DNA of 44,597 bases from Nocardioidaceae bacterium (GCA_013696975.1 JACCXO010000049.1:1-44597); one strand, 5' to 3'. Shown: positions 9,068-37,817, counted from the stretch's first letter. Numbers and translations are program-made. Notes: a model not told the origin generated them from the letters alone.

Positions 9068-10312
9068 CTACTTCAGGAAGTCGGGAACATCGAGATCGTT
9101 GTCGTCGAAGGGAATCGGCCGGGGCTGACGACTCTGTGCGGGAGCACCGCTGGCTGGTGGTGGCGGACCCGGTTGCTGCTGGGGGCGGTTTTGTTGCTGC
9201 TGCTGCGGGTGTTGCGGCTGCCGCTGCTGCTGCTGCGGGTGTTGTTGCTGCTGCGGGTGTTGTTGCTGCGGCGGTTGCTGCTGCTGCCCCTGAACCTCGG
9301 CAGTGGTCGCGGTGCTGGGACCCTCACGGCGCAGCGCCGGCTGGCTTTGGTCTCTCCGCTTCGGCATACCTCCGTCGAAGCCGGCCGCGATGACGGTCAC
9401 GCGCACCTCGTCACCGAGGGCATCGTCGATCACAGCACCGAAGATGATGTTGGCGTCGGCATGGGCCGCCTGGGACACCAGTGCGGCAGCTTCGTTGATC
9501 TCGAACAAGCCCAGATCGGAACCACCGGAGATCGATAACAAGACGCCGTGGGCGCCGTCGATAGAAGCCTCGAGCAACGGGCTCGACACGGCCATCTCGG
9601 CGGCGACGACAGCGCGGTCGTCGCCGTTGGCGCGACCGATGCCCATCAAAGCAGAACCAGCGTTCTGCATGACTGACTTGACATCAGCGAAGTCCAGGTT
9701 GATCAGACCGGGTGTGGTGATGAGGTCGGTGATACCCGAGACACCTTGGAGCAGGACCTGATCGGCCTGCTTGAAGGCGTCGAGCACGCTCACGCTGCGG
9801 TCTGAGATCGAGAGCAGTCGGTCATTGGGTATGACGATCAGGGTGTCGACTTCTTCGCGCAGGGCCGCGATGCCCTCCTCGGCCTGATTCGCGCGACGCC
9901 GGCCCTCGAACGCAAACGGACGTGTGACGACACCGATGGTCAAGGCACCCAGCGAACGAGCGATCCTCGCGACGACTGGAGCTCCGCCGGTCCCCGTGCC
10001 GCCACCCTCGCCAGCGGTGACGAACACCATGTCGGCGCCCTTCATGACCTCCTCGATCTCGTCGGCATGGTCCTCAGAAGCTCTGCCACCCACATCCGGG
10101 TCAGCCCCGGCTCCCAGACCTCGGGTGAGCTCACGACCGATGTCGAGCTTGACGTCGGCATCGCTCATCAGCAACGCCTGCGCGTCGGTGTTGATGGCGA
10201 TGAACTCGACGCCGCGGAGTCCAACCTCGATCATCCGATTGACGGCATTGACGCCCCCGCCGCCGATACCTACAACCTTGATGACCGCCAGATAGTTTTG
10301 CGGTGCTGCCAC
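9068..10312 (-). CDS. ftsZ: Cell division GTPase FtsZ
   Basis: Contains [13 protein letters not shown] and the tubulin signature [11 protein letters not shown], plus the C-terminal anchor peptide [12 protein letters not shown]. The Gln/Pro-rich linker is unusual (see the repeat feature at 9170-9297). Confidence 0.98.
9170..9297 (-). repeat. CAG/CTG-rich low-complexity tract encoding the poly-Gln/Pro FtsZ C-terminal linker
   Basis: The plus strand reads as reiterated tgctgctgcgggtgttg-type units. It translates to [38 protein letters not shown]. Confidence 0.8.
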
Positions 10313-20736: not shown

Positions 20737-22647
20737 TCACCAGGCTATGGGCAGCGCGGGTGAACGACGCCCGGTCGGCGAAACTCCGTATTTCTGCAGT
20801 GCAGCAGCCATCAGGTCGTGGAAGACCGGACCCCCAGCGCTGCCGCCGCCACTGCCGTCGGTCGGTTCCTGGATCACCACGTAGACCACGAATCGGGGTT
20901 CGTCCGCCGGGGCGAAGCCCGCGAACGAGATAGTGAAGCCTCGGTAGCCGCCCTGCTCGCTCGCCCGCTGCGCCGTACCGGTCTTGCCGGCCACGCGATA
21001 GCCGTTGATGGCGGCGAGCGGTGCCGTGCCCTCGGGCCCGGTGACGCCCTCCATCATGTGGGCGACCTGCTTGGCTGTCTTGACACTGATGACTCGGTGT
21101 CTGCTTGGCGCATCGGCACCCTCGAGCGCGCCATCACTGCCGACATACCCGCTCACGAGGGAGGGTTTGACGTAGACACCGTCGTTGGCGATCGCCGAGA
21201 GCGCCGTGGACATCTGGACGGCGTTGACGCTGAGACCCTGTCCAAAGGAGATGGTGTCGCGGCTGATCGGCAGCCAGTCGGCAGGCTCGGGGAGCAGTCC
21301 ACCGCTCTCACCGATGAGGCCCACGCCGGTCGGTTCGCCGAGGCCGAAGCTGCGCAGGTAGCGATGCAGCTGCGGGATGGGCATCTGCTCGGCTGACAAG
21401 GCGGTGCCGATGTTGGACGACCTGGCCAGCACACCGGCTGCCGTCAGCCGCAGGGTGCCATGGTCGAAGTAGTCGTTGATGGTGCTGTCTGCGCGCGGCA
21501 GGCTCGGAGGAACCGTGATCTTCGTCTTCGGCTTGACGTAACCCGCGTCGATCAGCGCCGCAAAGGTGAGCGCCTTCTGGACACTGCCGGGTTCGTAGAC
21601 GTCCATGAGCGCCCGGGAACCGTAGTTCTTCTCTGCTGTCGCCATCCACTCGTTGGGGTCGTATGTCGGATAGTCCGCCAACGCCAATAGCTCACCGGTC
21701 TCGACGTCTTGGACCACAGCGACACCCGAGCTCCCCCCGGTCTCTTTGACGGCTTGCGCGAGGCGGCGCTGGGCCAGGAACTGCAGATCCTGGTCGATGG
21801 TGAGTTTCACACCGGTGCCCTCGATGGGCGCAGTCACCGTGCTGTCCGCGAGTGGGATCTGCTGTTCGTCCGCCATCAGGTAGGTGGCAGAACCGTCCTT
21901 ACCCGCCAACAGCGAGTCGAGTGCGCGCTCGAACCCGTACAGACCCCCGCCTTCGGCGCCTGTGAAGCCCAATAGATTCGCCGCGACGTCGCCCGCCGGA
22001 TAGAAGCGCGCAGTGTCGTCGTAGGCGAAGACCCCTCCAAGGTCCGCGGAGTTCAGGCCGTTGACCACGGCTTCGGCTTGTCTGTCCGGAAGGTGGCGGG
22101 CGAGCTCCACATAGCGGGTGTCCTTCTTCAGCAGCTCGAGAGTGGCGATGTAGTCGACTCCGACCCGCCGGTGAAGACGGGTGGCGACTGCCGCCGGATC
22201 CCTGATCATGGCGGGGTCAGCCACCAACTTCGCCGCATCCACCGTCTGTGCCAGGGCCACGCCGTTGCGGTCATAGATAGGTGCGCGTGGAGCTTGCAGC
22301 GCAACCGTCTTCGCGCCCTTCTGCACCGCCATTTGGGCGTAGTCGTTCTCATCGATGCCTTGCAGTTGGATCAACCGTGCCGCAAAGAGCGACAACACGA
22401 ACGCCAAGACTCCTAAGGCGCTCCAGAGCCGTCCTGCGCCGTGGGCCACGGTTTCGGCAACACTGCTTCCCGAGGTCGGACGCCTTCTCGGAGCCGGCTG
22501 CCTCGGAGCCGGCTGCTTTCCTCGAGTCGGGCGTTGTCGTGTCGCCGGTCGCGCAGCCACAGGTCGCCCGGACGCCGGTCGCCCGGACGCCGGTCGCTTC
22601 GCCGCCTTGGACCGACCACTAGCGCCGTTCGGGGTGTGCTCAGCCAC
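20737..22647 (-). CDS. ftsI: Division-specific class B penicillin-binding protein (FtsI/PbpB)
   Basis: Contains SxxK (GSVQK), SxN (SSN) and KTG (KTGTA) motifs. The N-terminal cytoplasmic tail is Arg/Pro-rich, followed by one TM segment. I chose the GTG at 22647, overlapping the ftsL stop region; 636 aa. The track ORF extends through ftsL. Confidence 0.9.
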   Translation of the reverse strand: MAEHTPNGASGRSKAAKRPASGRPASGRPVAARPATRQRPTRGKQPAPRQPAPRRRPTSGSSVAETVAHGAGRLWSALGVLAFVLSLFAARLIQLQGIDENDYAQMAVQKGAKTVALQAPRAPIYDRNGVALAQTVDAAKLVADPAMIRDPAAVATRLHRRVGVDYIATLELLKKDTRYVELARHLPDRQAEAVVNGLNSADLGGVFAYDDTARFYPAGDVAANLLGFTGAEGGGLYGFERALDSLLAGKDGSATYLMADEQQIPLADSTVTAPIEGTGVKLTIDQDLQFLAQRRLAQAVKETGGSSGVAVVQDVETGELLALADYPTYDPNEWMATAEKNYGSRALMDVYEPGSVQKALTFAALIDAGYVKPKTKITVPPSLPRADSTINDYFDHGTLRLTAAGVLARSSNIGTALSAEQMPIPQLHRYLRSFGLGEPTGVGLIGESGGLLPEPADWLPISRDTISFGQGLSVNAVQMSTALSAIANDGVYVKPSLVSGYVGSDGALEGADAPSRHRVISVKTAKQVAHMMEGVTGPEGTAPLAAINGYRVAGKTGTAQRASEQGGYRGFTISFAGFAPADEPRFVVYVVIQEPTDGSGGGSAGGPVFHDLMAAALQKYGVSPTGRRSPALPIAW

Positions 22648-30512: not shown

Positions 30513-31355
30513 ATGAAGAAGTTATTGGGGGTCATCAGTGCGGCCGCGTGCGTGGCCAGCCTCGCTGCAACACCTTCGCAAGCCACCACCCCCATCGCCA
30601 AGAGGCCGATTTCTGTCGGGGCGTTGTCACCCTCGGCTGCGTCCTTGGCTGCTGCGGCGTTGTCGTCCTCCACCGCGTCCCTGACCGCCGCGGCACCGCG
30701 AGGGCGTTTCAGCATGAAGGATCGGTGGGCCCGCGAATCCACGCGCTACGGCGACTCGGACTCGTCGGTCTATCGCATCGAACACGTGACCGAGCTGCAG
30801 TACCGCCTGACCTGGGCAGGGGTGTACAAGTCCGGCGCCACCGGCTACTTCGGACCCAAGACGCGAGAAGGCGTGCGCACCTATCAGCGCCGGGAGAAGC
30901 TGCGGGTCACGGGGGTGGCGACGCACAAGACCTGGGCGCATCTGCTGAGGGACACCGTGCGTCAACGCGGACGCATCCCTCGCGTCTGCAAAACCAACGG
31001 CTGGCACGCTTGCTATGACCGCTCCACGCACCAAGTGACCTTGTGGCGCGGTGGACGGATCCGTAACACCTGGTTGGTCAGAGGTGGCGCCTACGGCGGT
31101 TACGAGACCCGGGTCGGGAAGTCTGTCGTCTACTACCGCGACATTGATCACGTCTCGGGGCTATACGGCTCCCCCATGCCTTACTCCCAGTTCTTCGATG
31201 GTGGCCAGGCTTATCATGGTTCGAGTTACATGCTGAACCCGTTCGTGGGGCACAGCCATGGCTGCATCAATATGTACAACGAGGATGCTCGACAGCTCTG
31301 GAGGCTCACGTCGAAGAAGCGGCTCGAAGTGAGGGTCTACGGCGCTTGGGACTGA
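30513..31355 (+). CDS. Secreted L,D-transpeptidase (PG_binding_1 plus YkuD domains)
   Basis: Signal peptide MKKLLGVISAAACVASLAATPSQA. Peptidoglycan-binding repeat (LQYRLTWAGVYKSGATGYFGPKTREGVRTYQ). YkuD catalytic motif GHSHGCINM. AAGGA RBS. Confidence 0.88.
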   Translation: MKKLLGVISAAACVASLAATPSQATTPIAKRPISVGALSPSAASLAAAALSSSTASLTAAAPRGRFSMKDRWARESTRYGDSDSSVYRIEHVTELQYRLTWAGVYKSGATGYFGPKTREGVRTYQRREKLRVTGVATHKTWAHLLRDTVRQRGRIPRVCKTNGWHACYDRSTHQVTLWRGGRIRNTWLVRGGAYGGYETRVGKSVVYYRDIDHVSGLYGSPMPYSQFFDGGQAYHGSSYMLNPFVGHSHGCINMYNEDARQLWRLTSKKRLEVRVYGAWD

Positions 31356-32609: not shown

Positions 32610-32671
32610 GTCCCTAGCCGCTCAGGAGGAGGGCCGACCGACGACGGGTCCGCTCGAAGGCGGGTGTCAGC

Positions 32672-33421
32672 TCAAAGCCGGGTCGCCAACAGGTGCAGCT
32701 GGGTCGCGATAGCCAAAAAGTCCGGATCGGTGGCGACTGCGGCTTCGAGTGCATGCAGCTCCTCAACCGCACCGGGCTCAGAGTCGACCATGGTGCTGGC
32801 GATGTGGTCGGTGAAAACCCTGACGCCACGCACCTCGGTGACGGTGAAGTGCGCTGAGGCGAGGAGCTCACATAGCTCTGCCAGTGAGAAGCGGCGTGGC
32901 GCGGAGTCGGCTCTGCTATCGGAGGTTTCGCGTTGCTGGAGCAGCGCTCTGGCGTCGGCGAGATGACCAGCGATCGCACGAGAGAAGACCGCGGCTGAGC
33001 GTTGCGCCACCAGGACGGACAGACACCCACCCTCGACCAGAGCCGTTGCCGCCGACGTGAGGGCAAGCGCTGGTTCGTCAACCACCTCGAGCACCCCGTG
33101 ACAGATGACGACATCCGCACTGGCCGGCTGAACCTCGTCGAGCAAGGTTGCCGCATCACCGAGGACTCCGCGGACGCCTGCGCTGACGGACACCTCAGCT
33201 GCTCGCCGCTCGAGGGATGCGAGCGCGTCCGGGCTGGGATCGACCACGAGGACGTGATGACCGAGCTCGGCAACCCGCACCGCCAGACCTCCGGTGCCGC
33301 CACCGAGGTCGATGACCTGCAGCGGTCGGTTAGCGCCCACGTCGAGGTGTCGTGCCCGCAGCGCCTCATGCAGCGCATCCCACACCATCGCAGTGCGCAG
33401 TGCGCTGCGACGATGCTCCAC
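32672..33421 (-). CDS. Class I SAM-dependent methyltransferase, substrate unknown
   Basis: Motif I VIDLGGGTGGLA and motif II-like DVVICHGVLEVV; 249 aa. I preferred it over the overlapping 313-aa ORF in another frame (32614-33555), which has no motifs and an Arg/Ser/Pro-biased composition. Confidence 0.8.
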   Translation of the reverse strand: MEHRRSALRTAMVWDALHEALRARHLDVGANRPLQVIDLGGGTGGLAVRVAELGHHVLVVDPSPDALASLERRAAEVSVSAGVRGVLGDAATLLDEVQPASADVVICHGVLEVVDEPALALTSAATALVEGGCLSVLVAQRSAAVFSRAIAGHLADARALLQQRETSDSRADSAPRRFSLAELCELLASAHFTVTEVRGVRVFTDHIASTMVDSEPGAVEELHALEAAVATDPDFLAIATQLHLLATRL

Positions 33422-33524
33422 CGATGACCTCTTTCGCTGCCCAACAGGTGGCTAAACCCTAGGCCATGACGGCTGGCTCGCCGCGGTCGTTGCGAGCGGC
33501 GCTCGGCGAGAGGGCGCACCGTGT

Positions 33525-36500
33525 TCATCCGGCGCTGCCGGGGCTGCGATGCCACAGCTTGCGAGGCACGGACTTGGAGTCCTCACCAGCGGGGCGGATA
33601 TCGGAGTACGGTGACTGCTTGTACCCACTGGTATGCACTAACACTCGGCGGCGGCCCATCCCGCCGGCAGTTGGAGCCGCCTCGTCTGTATCTTCGACGA
33701 GAGGGGTAGGTCCGGTGTCGTAGCTGGGTGGGCGTGCCATCACTGGTCGGCTCGATGAGCTACCGGCTGCTCCGTGAACAGCGTGGTCGTCGACCGTGCC
33801 GCTGGCGTGCTCGTCGAACCCCGCAGGCAACAACCGCATGCAGTCGTACACGGCCTCGATCCCTTGGCGTTGCCAGATCTCGTGGAGCATCGGCAGCTCC
33901 CAACAGCCGGTAGCGCGCAAGGACACCCCCTTGGGCCCGGTGCGGCGCAGCACTCCACGCACCACCAGCAGCCACGAGTGGAACAAGGTCGCGGCATAGG
34001 GTCCCTGGGCGTCTTCGAAGAAGGTCGCGTCAACAGGGCCGGTGCCGTCATCGAGGGTCAGGAACACCACGCGCCTGCCGGATCTGATCGGCGGTGTCTG
34101 GGTGGCGACCTTCACTCCAGCGACCAGCAGCTCACACTTGGTGCGGCGATGCAGAAGGTCTCGAGACCAACAGACATCGAGCTCGCGGAGCAGAGGTGCG
34201 TAGAAGTCGACGACATGGTGGCTCACGTCGAGTCCGAGAATCTCCAGCTCCGCTCGCACCCGCTCGGCTCCTGACATCTCTGGCAGGCCAGACGACTCCG
34301 TCAAGGCGGGAGTGTCGTCGAGGTCGAGAGTCAGCTGGACGCCGGTGACCGGCTCCACGGCTTTGGCGCCTTGTGACTGAGCCGCCGCCAGCGCGCGGGG
34401 GTCGGTGCCAGTTGGCGGGAGATGAGCCGAGGTGGTCGCGGCGCGGCGAGGCGAGGCGGCCCGCACTGCCTTGTCAGTGGCTCGGCTCCAACGGTCGAGG
34501 TCGAGCACCTGCAGCAAGAGGTCGCGCCTGGTCACGGTGCCCCGACGGCGTACCGGAACTGGGGAACCGATGCCATAGACCGCATCCAGGCCCCCCGCAA
34601 GCACCAGTCGTTCGGCGATGGGCCGGGAGACGCGAGCTCGTTGCCACAGGTCGGTGAGCGAATGGAAGGGACGCGCGGCCAGGATGCGCGCGATCTCCGC
34701 GTCGCTGATGCCCTTGACGTCCGCGAGCGACAGCCGGATACCGTAGGCCCGCCCGTCGGGCAGGTCAGGAGCGGGTGCTGGGCGGGGTGCGCGGCCGAGC
34801 ACCTCCGGTGGCGGCTCGTCATAGCTGCCGACTCTCTCGATCCGATAGACGTCGTCGGAGCAGTTGACGTCCAGGGGCAGCACGGCGATCCCGAACTGGC
34901 GAGCGTCGTCGAGGATCAACCGCTTGGGATACATGCCCGGGTCGTGGGTGAGCACGCCTGCCAGGAACGCCGCCGGATGGTGTGCCTTGAGCCATGCTGA
35001 CTGGTAGGTCGGAAGCGCGAAAGCCGCCGCATGGGCTTTGCAGAACCCGAATGAGGCGAAGGCTTCGAGGACCTCCCAGCAGCGTCGAGCGATGAAGGTG
35101 GAGTAGCCCCGGGCCAACACCCGCGGGAAGAACCAGAGCTTGATCGACTCTTTGCCCTGCTTGTCTCCCAACGCCCTGCGCGCTTCGTCGGCCTCCGCCA
35201 GCGTGCAGCCAGTGAGGGTGGCGATGATCTCGATCACCTGTTCGTGGAACACCACCACGCCGCACGTGGAGGCGAGAGACTCTTCGAGGTCGGGGTGGAT
35301 GTACTCCGGTTCTGACCAGCCTTGCCGGGCGCGGAGAAAGGGGACCACCATGTCGCTCTTGACCGGTCCCGGACGAAACAGCGAGATGTCGATGATGATG
35401 TCTTCGAAGGTCTCGGGAGCGAACTTGCCGACGAGCTCGCGCTGACCCGGGGACTCGATCTGGAAGCAGCCCAGGGTCTTGGTGCTCTGGATCAAGGCGT
35501 ATGTCGCGGGATCATCTCGTGGCGCCTGCGCCTCGTCGTCGATGTCGATCTGGATGCCATCGACCCGCTTGATCTCGTCGAGCGCATAACACATCGCCGA
35601 CTGCATCCTGATGCCGAGCACGTCGAGCTTGAGCAGGCCGAGGTCTTCGACGTCGTCCTTGTCGAACTGGCTCATGGGGAAGCCGAGATAGCTGGCCTCG
35701 ACCGGGGTGCGGTCGAGCAACGTGGCGTCGGACAGCAACACACCGCAGGGGTGGACGGCGATGTGGCGAGGCAACCCGTCGAGCTTTTCGACCAGCCCGA
35801 ACAACCGGTCGAGACGCTCCTCTCCCAGGCCGGAAGCGCGCAGCTCAGGGAGCTCGCGAAGGGCATTGCGCGCATCGCGAGCCCGGATGTGCGGGAAGGA
35901 CTTGGCGATGGAGTCGATCTCTCCCGGTGGCATCCCTAGAGCAGCCCCGACATCGCGGATCGCGTGGCGCACCCGATAGGTGTCCATCATCGAGACACAG
36001 GCGCAACGGGTGCCTGAGTAACGCTCGAGGATGCGCTCGTAGACCTCGGTGCGGCGAGCTGACTCGACGTCGACATCGATGTCGGGCAGTGCCTGCCGCA
36101 GCGGTGAGAGAAACCGCTCCATCAGCAAGCCGTAACGAATCGGATCCACGCCGGAGATGCCGAGCAAGTAGTTGACGACGCTGCCTGCACCTGAGCCGCG
36201 AGCGGCAACGCGCACGCCCATCTCGCGGATCAGATCGACGACGTCGGCCACGGTGAGGAAGTAGGTCGAGTACTTAAGCCGCTCGATCACCCCGAGCTCG
36301 TCGCGGAGCCGACTGCTCACCGCCTTGTGCTGGTCAGGAGAATAGAGCCGTCCGATGCCGGCTTCGCAGCGCGCGCGGAGCAGAGCATCGCCAGGAGAAG
36401 CAGACGGAGACCCAGATCCACGGCCGATGTTGAACTTAGGGCCGATGTTGAATTCAGGGCTGATGTTGAATTCAGGGCCGATGTTGAATTCAGGGCTGAT

Positions 36501-37499
36501 ATTGAATTCAGGGAAGTGCACCTCGCCGAGGCCGAGGTCGGCCTTGGGGTCCACGGCGCAGCGGTCCGCCACCGCTCGGGTGCGAGCAAGCATCCGGTCG
36601 GCCTCGCGTACGTCGAAGCCTGCGAACCGGCAGATCTCATCGGCGATGTCGGCCATCTCCTTGCCGGACTTCAAAAAGCCTTCGGCGTTGGCTCGATCGA
36701 CGTGGCGAAGGTCGAGAGGCACCAGGCGGCGTACGGAATCCAAGATGTCGACGGTCGGCGCGTCAGATCTGTCGGCGTAACGGACCGCGTTGGTGAGGAC
36801 TGCCCCAAAGCCTGCGCTGGCGGCAAGCCCCGCCATCCGCGCCGCATGGGAGCTCGAACCGGGGCCGTGCCCGCCGCTGCGGTGGGAGAATACCTCGACC
36901 ACGACCTGGAGAGGATCGGTGACCTCCCGCCAGCTGCGCAACACCTCACGAGCGAGGTCGTCTCGTCGCAACGTCGTCGCCCATCCCAGTTCAGAGGCGG
37001 GTCCCAACATCACCACCGCGTCATGGTCTGACTGGAGCCCTGCTAAGTGGGTGGCAACCAGCTCTCGAGTGGCGACAGGAGCACCGCGCTCGCCACGCAG
37101 GTGAGTCGCCGACACGAGTCGGCACAAGGCTGCCCACCCCGCCTTGCTGCCGGCGAACACCGTGATGCGAGGCAAGGCATGAGAGCTCGGGTCTCGATAG
37201 CTTCCCCCACGCGCAGGCGAGGAGCGAGACACCCCAGCCCGACCAGTCTGAGCCGGTGAATGACCCAAACCCATCAGACCAGAGGGCTCCACAGCGAGAT
37301 CGACACCCAGCACTGGCCGGATGCCACCACTCAGGCACGCCTTGGCGAAGCGCACGGCGCCATAGAGCCCGTCGCGGTCGGTGAGAGCGAGGGTGTCCAT
37401 CTCGGATTCGACGGCCCGCTCCACCAGTCGGTGCGGATGCGAGGCGCCGTACTTCAGCGAGTAGCCGGAAGCAACATGCAGGTGGACGAAGGGATCCAT
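33525..37499 (-). CDS. dnaE2: Divergent DnaE2/ImuC-like error-prone DNA polymerase III alpha homolog (1324 aa)
   Basis: It has a PHP N-terminus (FVHLHVASGYSLKYGAS, with the second His of the HxH pair replaced by Ala), Pol III alpha palm/fingers blocks (GFCKAHAAAFA, LLKLDVLGIRMQSA) and an OB-fold region. The terminal PRKLWHRSPGSAG resembles DnaE2 C-termini as I remember them. A LexA box and a damage promoter lie upstream. It is longer than typical DnaE2 because of several low-complexity insertions. The DnaE1-versus-DnaE2 assignment needs phylogeny. Confidence 0.75.
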   Translation of the reverse strand: MDPFVHLHVASGYSLKYGASHPHRLVERAVESEMDTLALTDRDGLYGAVRFAKACLSGGIRPVLGVDLAVEPSGLMGLGHSPAQTGRAGVSRSSPARGGSYRDPSSHALPRITVFAGSKAGWAALCRLVSATHLRGERGAPVATRELVATHLAGLQSDHDAVVMLGPASELGWATTLRRDDLAREVLRSWREVTDPLQVVVEVFSHRSGGHGPGSSSHAARMAGLAASAGFGAVLTNAVRYADRSDAPTVDILDSVRRLVPLDLRHVDRANAEGFLKSGKEMADIADEICRFAGFDVREADRMLARTRAVADRCAVDPKADLGLGEVHFPEFNISPEFNIGPEFNISPEFNIGPKFNIGRGSGSPSASPGDALLRARCEAGIGRLYSPDQHKAVSSRLRDELGVIERLKYSTYFLTVADVVDLIREMGVRVAARGSGAGSVVNYLLGISGVDPIRYGLLMERFLSPLRQALPDIDVDVESARRTEVYERILERYSGTRCACVSMMDTYRVRHAIRDVGAALGMPPGEIDSIAKSFPHIRARDARNALRELPELRASGLGEERLDRLFGLVEKLDGLPRHIAVHPCGVLLSDATLLDRTPVEASYLGFPMSQFDKDDVEDLGLLKLDVLGIRMQSAMCYALDEIKRVDGIQIDIDDEAQAPRDDPATYALIQSTKTLGCFQIESPGQRELVGKFAPETFEDIIIDISLFRPGPVKSDMVVPFLRARQGWSEPEYIHPDLEESLASTCGVVVFHEQVIEIIATLTGCTLAEADEARRALGDKQGKESIKLWFFPRVLARGYSTFIARRCWEVLEAFASFGFCKAHAAAFALPTYQSAWLKAHHPAAFLAGVLTHDPGMYPKRLILDDARQFGIAVLPLDVNCSDDVYRIERVGSYDEPPPEVLGRAPRPAPAPDLPDGRAYGIRLSLADVKGISDAEIARILAARPFHSLTDLWQRARVSRPIAERLVLAGGLDAVYGIGSPVPVRRRGTVTRRDLLLQVLDLDRWSRATDKAVRAASPRRAATTSAHLPPTGTDPRALAAAQSQGAKAVEPVTGVQLTLDLDDTPALTESSGLPEMSGAERVRAELEILGLDVSHHVVDFYAPLLRELDVCWSRDLLHRRTKCELLVAGVKVATQTPPIRSGRRVVFLTLDDGTGPVDATFFEDAQGPYAATLFHSWLLVVRGVLRRTGPKGVSLRATGCWELPMLHEIWQRQGIEAVYDCMRLLPAGFDEHASGTVDDHAVHGAAGSSSSRPVMARPPSYDTGPTPLVEDTDEAAPTAGGMGRRRVLVHTSGYKQSPYSDIRPAGEDSKSVPRKLWHRSPGSAG
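36426..36515 (-). repeat. 5 x 18-bp in-frame tandem repeat inside dnaE2
   Basis: The plus-strand units are gatgttgaacttagggcc, gatgttgaattcagggct, gatgttgaattcagggcc, gatgttgaattcagggct and gatattgaattcagggaa. They encode PEFNIS-PEFNIG-PEFNIS-PEFNIG-PKFNIG. Four units carry GAATTC. GC content is visibly far below the surrounding DNA. Confidence 0.95.
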
Positions 37500-37511: not shown

Positions 37512-37817
37512 TCAGTCGATGCTGCAGACGAGCTGCCATTGGCCGCTGGCCCAGTCAAAGGCCAGGTCGAACACACCGGCGCCGCCCTCGGCTGCAACAC
37601 CTGAGCGGCCGTTGATGGCCTCGACCCGCCACAGCTCTCTCTCGCCCAACAGATCGGTCGACAGGTCTGGCTGCTCCCACCAGGCGCTGGTCTCGATCCA
37701 ATGGGCGATGAGGTCACGCACCACCCAGAACGTGCCGCGCCACAAGAACTGCTCGGGTGCCTCTTGACCTGCCACCAGACCCCGACGCACCTCAATGGGA
37801 TCGCAATAGCTACGCAT
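37512..37817 (-). CDS. 101-aa protein resembling the C-terminal domain of ImuB, stand-alone
   Basis: GGAGG lies 7-8 nt before the ATG, and the stop is 12 nt before the dnaE2 ATG. The Trp-rich pattern FLWRGTFWVVRDLIAHWIE..WWEQ...ERELWRVEA...GVFDL..D..SGQWQLV matches my recollection of the ImuB C-terminal block (F.WRG..h.V......ERI...WW....RDYfRVE...G...wlf.d....W.l.G). The functional call is inference. Confidence 0.55.
   Translation of the reverse strand: MRSYCDPIEVRRGLVAGQEAPEQFLWRGTFWVVRDLIAHWIETSAWWEQPDLSTDLLGERELWRVEAINGRSGVAAEGGAGVFDLAFDWASGQWQLVCSID

Follow-up and report, generated by a model that had tools for sequence, protein, structure and literature searches.

Why does the gene of a DNA polymerase carry five near-identical copies of an 18-bp sequence, and are these a fixed insertion, an artefact, or a sequence that still changes in length? 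The question is raised by one whole 44,597-bp contig of a Nocardioidaceae metagenome-assembled genome (MAG), hereafter called the window, which encodes a C-family DNA polymerase of the DnaE2 type (33525..37499, minus strand, 1324 aa). We give a probability of about 0.75 to the reading that the repeat array in this open reading frame (ORF) is a coding minisatellite, i.e., a variable-number tandem repeat (VNTR), located in a disordered linker between the PHP and palm domains, and that it is a slippage-driven and probably near-neutral length polymorphism. The observation itself is confirmed: the in-frame array is real, and it is polymorphic in nature, with two to five units.

Five units in the window, two to five in nature

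The array lies at positions 36423-36512 of the minus strand, where five 18-bp units follow each other head to tail and in frame. They encode PEFNIS-PEFNIG-PEFNIS-PEFNIG-PKFNIG, i.e., residues 330-359 of the polymerase, with GEVHF before the array and RGSGSP / RGSGSPSASPGDALLRARCEAG after it. The units are the following:

36495-36512, minus strand: unit 1 (A), CCTGAATTCAATATCAGC, PEFNIS with AAT, including the native PEF
36477-36494, minus strand: unit 2 (B), CCTGAATTCAACATCGGC (ending in AACATCGGC), PEFNIG
36459-36476, minus strand: unit 3 (C), CCTGAATTCAACATCAGC (ending in AACATCAGC), PEFNIS with AAC
36441-36458, minus strand: unit 4 (B), CCTGAATTCAACATCGGC, the same as unit 2, PEFNIG
36423-36440, minus strand: unit 5 (E), CCTAAGTTCAACATCGGC, PKFNIG, the Lys unit

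Tandem Repeats Finder (TRF) delimits the array at 36422-36513 (period 18, 5.1 copies, 91% matches, score 149), the top of its 39 rows in the window. A search with the consensus CCTGAATTCAACATCRGC, allowing up to three mismatches, gives five matches, all in the array and on the minus strand, where 0.02 are expected in the 44.6-kb window; no further copy exists anywhere in the window outside the array. Together with the translation, these results agree with a preliminary description of the locus, which had recognised five in-frame, near-identical units and had placed them correctly but for an offset of 3 nt, and which had suggested the search for copies elsewhere. The units are 78-100% identical in pairs, and the array has what characterises a minisatellite, namely highly identical units, roughly 10-100 bp long, arranged head to tail. 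They had been said to differ only at wobble or adjacent positions. This holds for the AAT/AAC differences, but AGC/GGC is a first-position change between Ser and Gly, and in unit 5 the GAA of the other units is replaced by AAG. TRF also reports four other repeats with periods that are multiples of three in the window, at 2017-2157 (15), 9192-9287 (18/3), 22482-22597 (15), and 30620-30694 (36 bp), which are presumably coding as well.

The evidence on alleles comes from assemblies, namely MAGs and Logan contigs (k = 31), the latter mostly breaking within the array. The metagenomes behind the Logan contigs come from soil, rock, sand, and terrestrial samples and belong to separate studies of 2017-2025. 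Alleles were read against the window sequence, with S and G standing for Ser-type and Gly-type units:

Window (MAG): 5 units, A-B-C-B-E
X1: consistent with 5 units; 54-nt unitig with 0 mismatches and the internal order B2-C-B1-A, possible only in an allele of at least 5 units
X2: 4 units, A-C-B-E, 18 bp missing; 353-nt contig, depth 23.6
X7: 4 units, A-C-B-E, 18 bp missing; 4696-nt contig, depth 18.8, one other mismatch
X9: 4 units, S-G-G-G, with two GAG codons and no Lys unit; 1127-nt contig, depth 34
X13: 4 units, no Lys unit
L081 (second MAG, GCA_030858565.1): 3 units, PEFNIS-PEFNIG-PKFNIG; 99.8% identity over 2953 nt of the gene
X12: 3 units, 36 bp missing
X8 and X19 (about 96% strain): 3 units, S-G-S, no Lys unit
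X5: 2 units, units 5 and 4 running straight into the upstream flank; 71-nt unitig, depth 7.3

Alleles of two, three, four, and five units thus occur between flanks that are 96-99.8% identical in independent assemblies. All differences in length are of 18 or 36 bp, and the reading frame is kept in every allele. For example, L081 has one 36-bp Ser/Gly double unit fewer than the window, together with one synonymous AAT>AAC change. In Logan, the shorter alleles are represented by contigs that span the array. The S-to-S junction of X2 and X7 and the junction of the flank with a Gly unit in X5 require 31-mers that are absent from the five-unit sequence, and one can reason from this that these alleles are not mis-assemblies of the five-unit one. 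Contigs of JGI metagenomes, scanned for the unit-junction pattern and for the flank with the first unit, gave no matches. The preliminary description had proposed a strain-variable VNTR whose 18-bp unit preserves the frame at any copy number, and had named invariance of the copy number or an assembly artefact as the findings that would contradict it. The proposal is borne out: comparison across assemblies reveals a variable number of units, and since these alleles are found in independent assemblies the array is neither an assembly artefact nor an invariant insertion.

A broader form of the artefact explanation deserves consideration, in which the array is an assembly expansion or collapse, a contaminating EcoRI linker or adapter, or a horizontally acquired AT-rich insert. 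Its low GC content (47% vs 66%) and the fact that the window's only four EcoRI sites (GAATTC) all lie within it, at 36450-36509, would fit such an origin. However, independent assemblies of soil, rock, and sand metagenomes from 2017-2025 contain the repeat in frame, as does the second MAG; decayed homologous units exist in a more distant relative (L082, see following); and the unit has no other copy in the window. The composition, moreover, can be traced to the encoded peptide and to codons present locally. If the array peptide were written with the codon usage of the gene itself, it would have 51.0% GC, and the rest of the deficit (46.7% over the 90 bp of the array, 65.6% in the gene) comes from CCT, which makes up 21% of the Pro codons elsewhere in the gene, and from GAA, which makes up 21% of the Glu codons. 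Nor is the absence of GAATTC from the rest of the window significant, as a first-order model predicts 5.4 sites outside the array, yet with a third-order model, which takes tetranucleotide composition into account, the number drops to 1.4 and P(0) is 0.25. Avoidance of EcoRI sites was considered as well and dropped for the same reason. The low GC content and the EcoRI sites are thus probably by-products of the amplification of a single local seed (CCT-GAA-TTC-AAC-ATC). Hence, an origin as an artefact or a mobile or foreign insert is scarcely credible. The four sites previously described are there, whereas the composition called alien, with an estimated GC of about 40-45% that falls slightly below the measured value, reflects the encoded amino acids and two amplified local codons and not foreign DNA.

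The history of the array can be followed in L082, a related locus with 87% nucleotide identity. It has three degenerate units, CCTGAATTCCAACGCAGC-CCTGAGTTCGACCTCAGC-CCGCCGTCCAGCATCGAC, encoding PEFQRS-PEFDLS-PPSSID and followed by the RGSGSP tail. Its linker is exactly as long as that of the three-unit allele and aligns with L081 without gaps, the successive units being 78%, 78%, and 67% identical between the two loci. Because L082 has three units that match in position and the same length, a three-unit array must be older than the split from L082. One might then suppose that the array is an ancient fixed insertion, an old and stable expansion of the loop with no ongoing turnover, and the positional homology of the three units speaks for this. 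Yet two to five units are found among strains that are 96-99.8% identical, and the units are 78-100% alike in the window vs 33-78% within L082, which indicates continuing homogenisation in the window lineage. An ancient fixed insertion is therefore very improbable, and the sequences suggest instead that the window lineage keeps resizing and homogenising its array while the copy of L082 has decayed. The Lys unit fits in this series, since its AAG codon is a single G>A step from the GAG unit found at the same position in X9 and X12. The recent slipped-strand expansion that had been put forward consequently needs qualification: the latest steps are recent, but the three-unit array predates the split from L082. 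Growth of the repeat out of the native FPEF, also put forward, is well founded. The first unit is the native PEF, and its codons CCT GAA are common to the window and L082 and were amplified in every unit, while 44 of 49 related loci have CCC/CCG GAG at the native motif.

The linker between the PHP and palm domains

The junction of the PHP and palm domains, to which the array had been assigned by eye, is confirmed by a profile of 36 family members aligned to the α subunit of Escherichia coli. The segment 'lGlGevhlPel' of the profile aligns with 'rlGEYFLPQF' of E. coli α, which is the PHP/palm border, and 'adavLrarceag' aligns with the E. coli helix that follows 'PTGDMSTEDYL'. The edge 'G-E-x-h-h-P-x-F' and the next helix also align in the solved α subunits (E. 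coli 2HNH/5FKU, Taq 2HPI, and Mycobacterium tuberculosis DnaE1 5LEW/7PU7), and the model of the N-terminal 700 residues has a fold like theirs. In contrast, none of these structures has an insert at the PHP-palm point: the gap between motif and helix is less than about 10 residues in E. coli α (PTGDMST) and 43 residues here, 30 of which are repeat. The remainder is as follows:

36381..36422, minus strand: non-repeat rest of the linker, RGSGSPSASPGDAL, reaching the conserved LRARCEAG helix

This segment also varies among homologues and lies partly within a coil with pLDDT <50. The coil was delimited with AlphaFold2, which was given the same alignment and run on residues 1-700 (mean pLDDT 63.5). 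In the resulting model, residues 325-365 have pLDDT <50 and no secondary structure, and they are flanked by helices at 297-314 and 369-385 with pLDDT of about 88-92. The array is thus predicted to lie in an unstructured linker. The model matches solved α subunits with a Foldseek E of about 1e-28 but a TM score of 0.35-0.41, and since the global superposition is poor it was used only locally, around the linker.

The linker, taken as the segment between 'HFP' and 'LRARCEAG' in 120 homologues, varies between 11 and 72 residues, with a median of 18. The basal form has 12 residues, as in EFGSSGQEAQAM of cultured Nocardioides, and a like spread of lengths is seen at loci from GTDB genomes. Tandem peptide repeats, scanned for with a period of 4-14, an identity of at least 80%, and four or more residue types, are strongly concentrated in this segment: 10 are found in 2,802 linker residues vs 13 in 153,642 other residues, i.e., 3.57 vs 0.085 per 1000 aa, an approximately 42-fold difference. 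The units are of several mutually unrelated types, including PELRS (four to five copies), LDVTE/LDVRG (three to four), PEMNS (two), GISTRSITGAG (three), and LRSSSTTG (two). In a Frankiaceae MAG (L026), the linker contains three perfect 15-bp units encoding GLGSA. The linker of L003 (L003:11068-11182) holds a palindromic element that stays in frame and measures about 42 nt, GGTCGAGCTTGTCGAGACC...GGTTTCGACAAGCTCGACC (in translation ...SSLSRPAGFDKLDHR...), and copies or half-copies of this element are also present elsewhere in L003 and in L032 and L019. GISTRSITGAG, ETSLRSSSTTG, and SRGQAQQATR in other homologues resemble in-frame insertions of small dispersed GC-rich elements.

This linker site accepts almost any sequence, and this is the main argument for regarding the repeat of the window as tolerated and not required. 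The recurrence of repeats must nevertheless be counted with care, since a single old duplication may lie behind some of those of the PE[F/L] type, and an independent origin can be assumed safely just for the unit types that are unrelated to each other.

These observations suggest the following mechanism. Replication slippage or unequal recombination, acting both between single 18-bp units and between 36-bp Ser/Gly double units, would add and remove units, and the same turnover would keep the units homogeneous by concerted evolution. Since each step is a multiple of three, none would switch the polymerase off. The loop is probably exposed to solvent and tolerant of insertions, for which reason changes in its length would be neutral or nearly so.

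The polymerase and its neighbours

The polymerase has the complete C-family architecture, with PHP, pol3_alpha (palm), fingers, HhH, and OB domains (Pfam PF02811, PF07733, PF17657, PF14579, and PF01336). The palm aspartates are kept (LPDIDVDVE aligned with MPDIDTDFS of Taq). In the PHP domain, TDRDG stands where Taq has TDHGN, this position being the one compared among the nine ligands. The best NCBIfam match is the error-prone polymerase model NF004225 (639.3 bits, E = 1e-191, in three stretches), which does not reach the cut-off of 939 and is about level with the DnaE model NF004226 (627 vs a cut-off of 1002). Several large low-complexity inserts probably depress both scores. Among structures in the PDB, M. 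tuberculosis DnaE1 (E = 6e-53) is a weaker match than Taq (2e-64) or E. coli α (3e-62), whereas a DnaE1 ortholog would have that protein as its best match; hence the polymerase is not the replicative DnaE1 of its phylum. Its homologues are proteins of 1250-1430 aa from Nocardioidaceae and Propionibacteriales, called 'error-prone DNA polymerase' at JGI and 'DNA polymerase III subunit alpha' at NCBI, the generic name following from the score below the DnaE2 cut-off, of which the inserts are the probable cause. The DnaE2 label of the preliminary description is therefore right by exclusion and by context, though its score lies under the NCBIfam cut-off for DnaE2.

Two more inserts of this protein are variable, at residues ~70-116 in the PHP domain (~37150-37290, minus strand) and ~860-1000 before HhH (~34500-34920, minus strand). 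Across homologues they too contain tandem peptide repeats, e.g., VGSVP (three copies), EPSGLVP (two), and PFETLTSFAPQGP (two), and residues 84-106 have pLDDT <50 in the AlphaFold model.

Around the polymerase, the window contains:

37512..37817, minus strand: DUF6504 gene, 101 aa (Pfam PF20114, E = 1.7e-15), ending 12 nt before the start of the polymerase
32672-33421, minus strand: ORF of a probable SAM-dependent methyltransferase, between polymerase and dinB, as in L081 and L083
31413..32609, minus strand: DinB / DNA polymerase IV, 398 aa (Pfam IMS and IMS_C; NCBIfam NF003015, 367.6 vs a cut-off of 367)

The order DUF6504-polymerase-methyltransferase-DinB, all on one strand, is the same in L083, and the adjacency of DUF6504 and polymerase is found in both L082 and L083. 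L082 lacks the methyltransferase: about 0.9 kb (window 32610-33524) are absent, and dinB overlaps the polymerase stop codon. The DinB of the window is apparently active. The window contains no imuA or imuB. A 313-aa ORF at 32614-33555 was considered as an ImuA/ImuB-like gene and rejected, as it matches no family and has the Arg/Ser/Pro-rich look of a wrong frame.

The DUF6504 protein is all-beta in its AlphaFold model (mean pLDDT 84) and has invariant tryptophans, one of them near the C-terminus. Each of its best 120 homologues is a standalone protein, with a length of 93-166 aa. Foldseek finds no match to the model in the PDB with E < 1, tblastn against plasmids returns a single match, unannotated, and literature searches on DUF6504 gave nothing relevant. 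The all-beta model, the C-terminal tryptophan, and the context suggest that it is probably a standalone ImuB-C-like partner of DnaE2B modules. Such an actinobacterial module, consisting of DnaE2B, a standalone ImuB-C, and an active PolY (optionally with RecA), has been proposed (PMC12926913; Nucleic Acids Res 2026, gkag133), and standalone ImuB-C proteins beside DnaE2 or DinB had been described earlier (PMC3765255; Biol Direct 2013). Like this module, the window has a DnaE2-type polymerase with neither imuA nor imuB in its neighbourhood, a small all-beta protein encoded directly before it, and DinB after it on the same strand, and the polymerase looks like the ImuA/ImuB-independent DnaE2B type. 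The representative chosen for the module is Tessaracoccus, and the relatives of the window polymerase include a Tessaracoccus locus (L070, 53% identity). A PHP-palm linker with repeats is not among the features that the two papers describe; the words 'linker' and 'insertion' are absent from the text of PMC12926913. Literature searches for DnaE2 with tandem repeats gave nothing relevant.

The context raises the possibility, which we hold to be unlikely, that the array has a function and that extra PE[F/L] copies, or the length of the spacer, modulate the polymerase. This might happen through the geometry of PHP and palm or through docking of the DUF6504/ImuB-C-like partner on the PHP domain, and strains would then differ in translesion or mutagenic activity. 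The variation in copy number is real, and units starting with PE[F/L] are repeated in several lineages (PELRS in four to five copies, PEMNS in two, PELQS/PEFQS, and PEFQRS/PEFDLS). According to mutasome models made with AlphaFold (PMC12926913), the ImuB-C barrel is contacted chiefly through the PHP domain, and in the window the DUF6504 gene is directly upstream of the polymerase. However, other lineages hold unrelated repeats in the linker (LDVTE, GLGSA, and GISTRSITGAG), one of them a palindromic dispersed element, and cultured Nocardioides manage with just 12 residues, which points to tolerance of insertions rather than to a required motif. The PE[F/L] repeats, as already noted, may also stem from one duplication and not from independent origins. 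A stronger version, distinctly doubtful in our judgement, makes of the linker a selected 'length and valency dial', whose PE[F/L] copies serve as docking registers or sites for the DUF6504/ImuB-C-like partner or for RecA/PolY. If this were true, slippage would give populations a heritable and reversible variation in the engagement of the mutagenic polymerase.

The near-neutral coding VNTR remains our preferred interpretation, but several points weigh against it. The count of five units in the window rests on the MAG assembler, and an allele of seven units would share all its 31-mers with one of five. The model of the linker is modest, as its mean pLDDT and TM scores indicate, and low pLDDT is no proof of disorder. 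Neutrality itself is something that we infer, and two observations could reflect selection on the peptide: most differences, whether between units or between alleles, are synonymous or exchange Ser and Gly, and several lineages have repeated copies of the conserved PE[F/L].

Known coding repeats and the significance of the array

In Staphylococcus aureus, the 24-bp Xr repeats of spa form an in-frame coding VNTR that is used for strain typing. The array of the window resembles such VNTRs in that short head-to-tail units with a length that is a multiple of three vary in number and make-up between close strains, are altered by slippage or recombination with the frame left intact, and encode a flexible, non-catalytic segment. 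It differs from them in the type of protein, a cytoplasmic polymerase in which the repeat lies between domains of the catalytic core, as opposed to a surface or cell-wall-spanning protein, and in that the array is short (2-5 units) and the organism is uncultured and lacks a typing scheme. Simple-sequence contingency loci provide another comparison, as they also have slippage-prone tandem repeats within a gene and a copy number that depends on the strain. There, however, the resemblance ends: phase variation involves a shift of the frame or of promoter spacing, whereas the 18-bp unit keeps the ORF in frame in every allele, so that there is no on/off switching and the length of the linker alone changes.

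In conclusion, an uncultured actinobacterium of soil and rock has a polymorphic in-frame minisatellite within a core enzyme of DNA metabolism. The array can be used as a strain-resolving marker in metagenomes, and it is in this sense only that the repeat 'marks' the polymerase, as had been suggested. At the level of the family, the PHP/palm junction of DnaE2-type polymerases emerges as a hot spot that tolerates insertions; its inserts are relevant to the modelling of DnaE2B complexes, and the linker points to a permissive site for tags. If it were true that copy number affects mutagenesis, the array would represent a new kind of evolvability switch.

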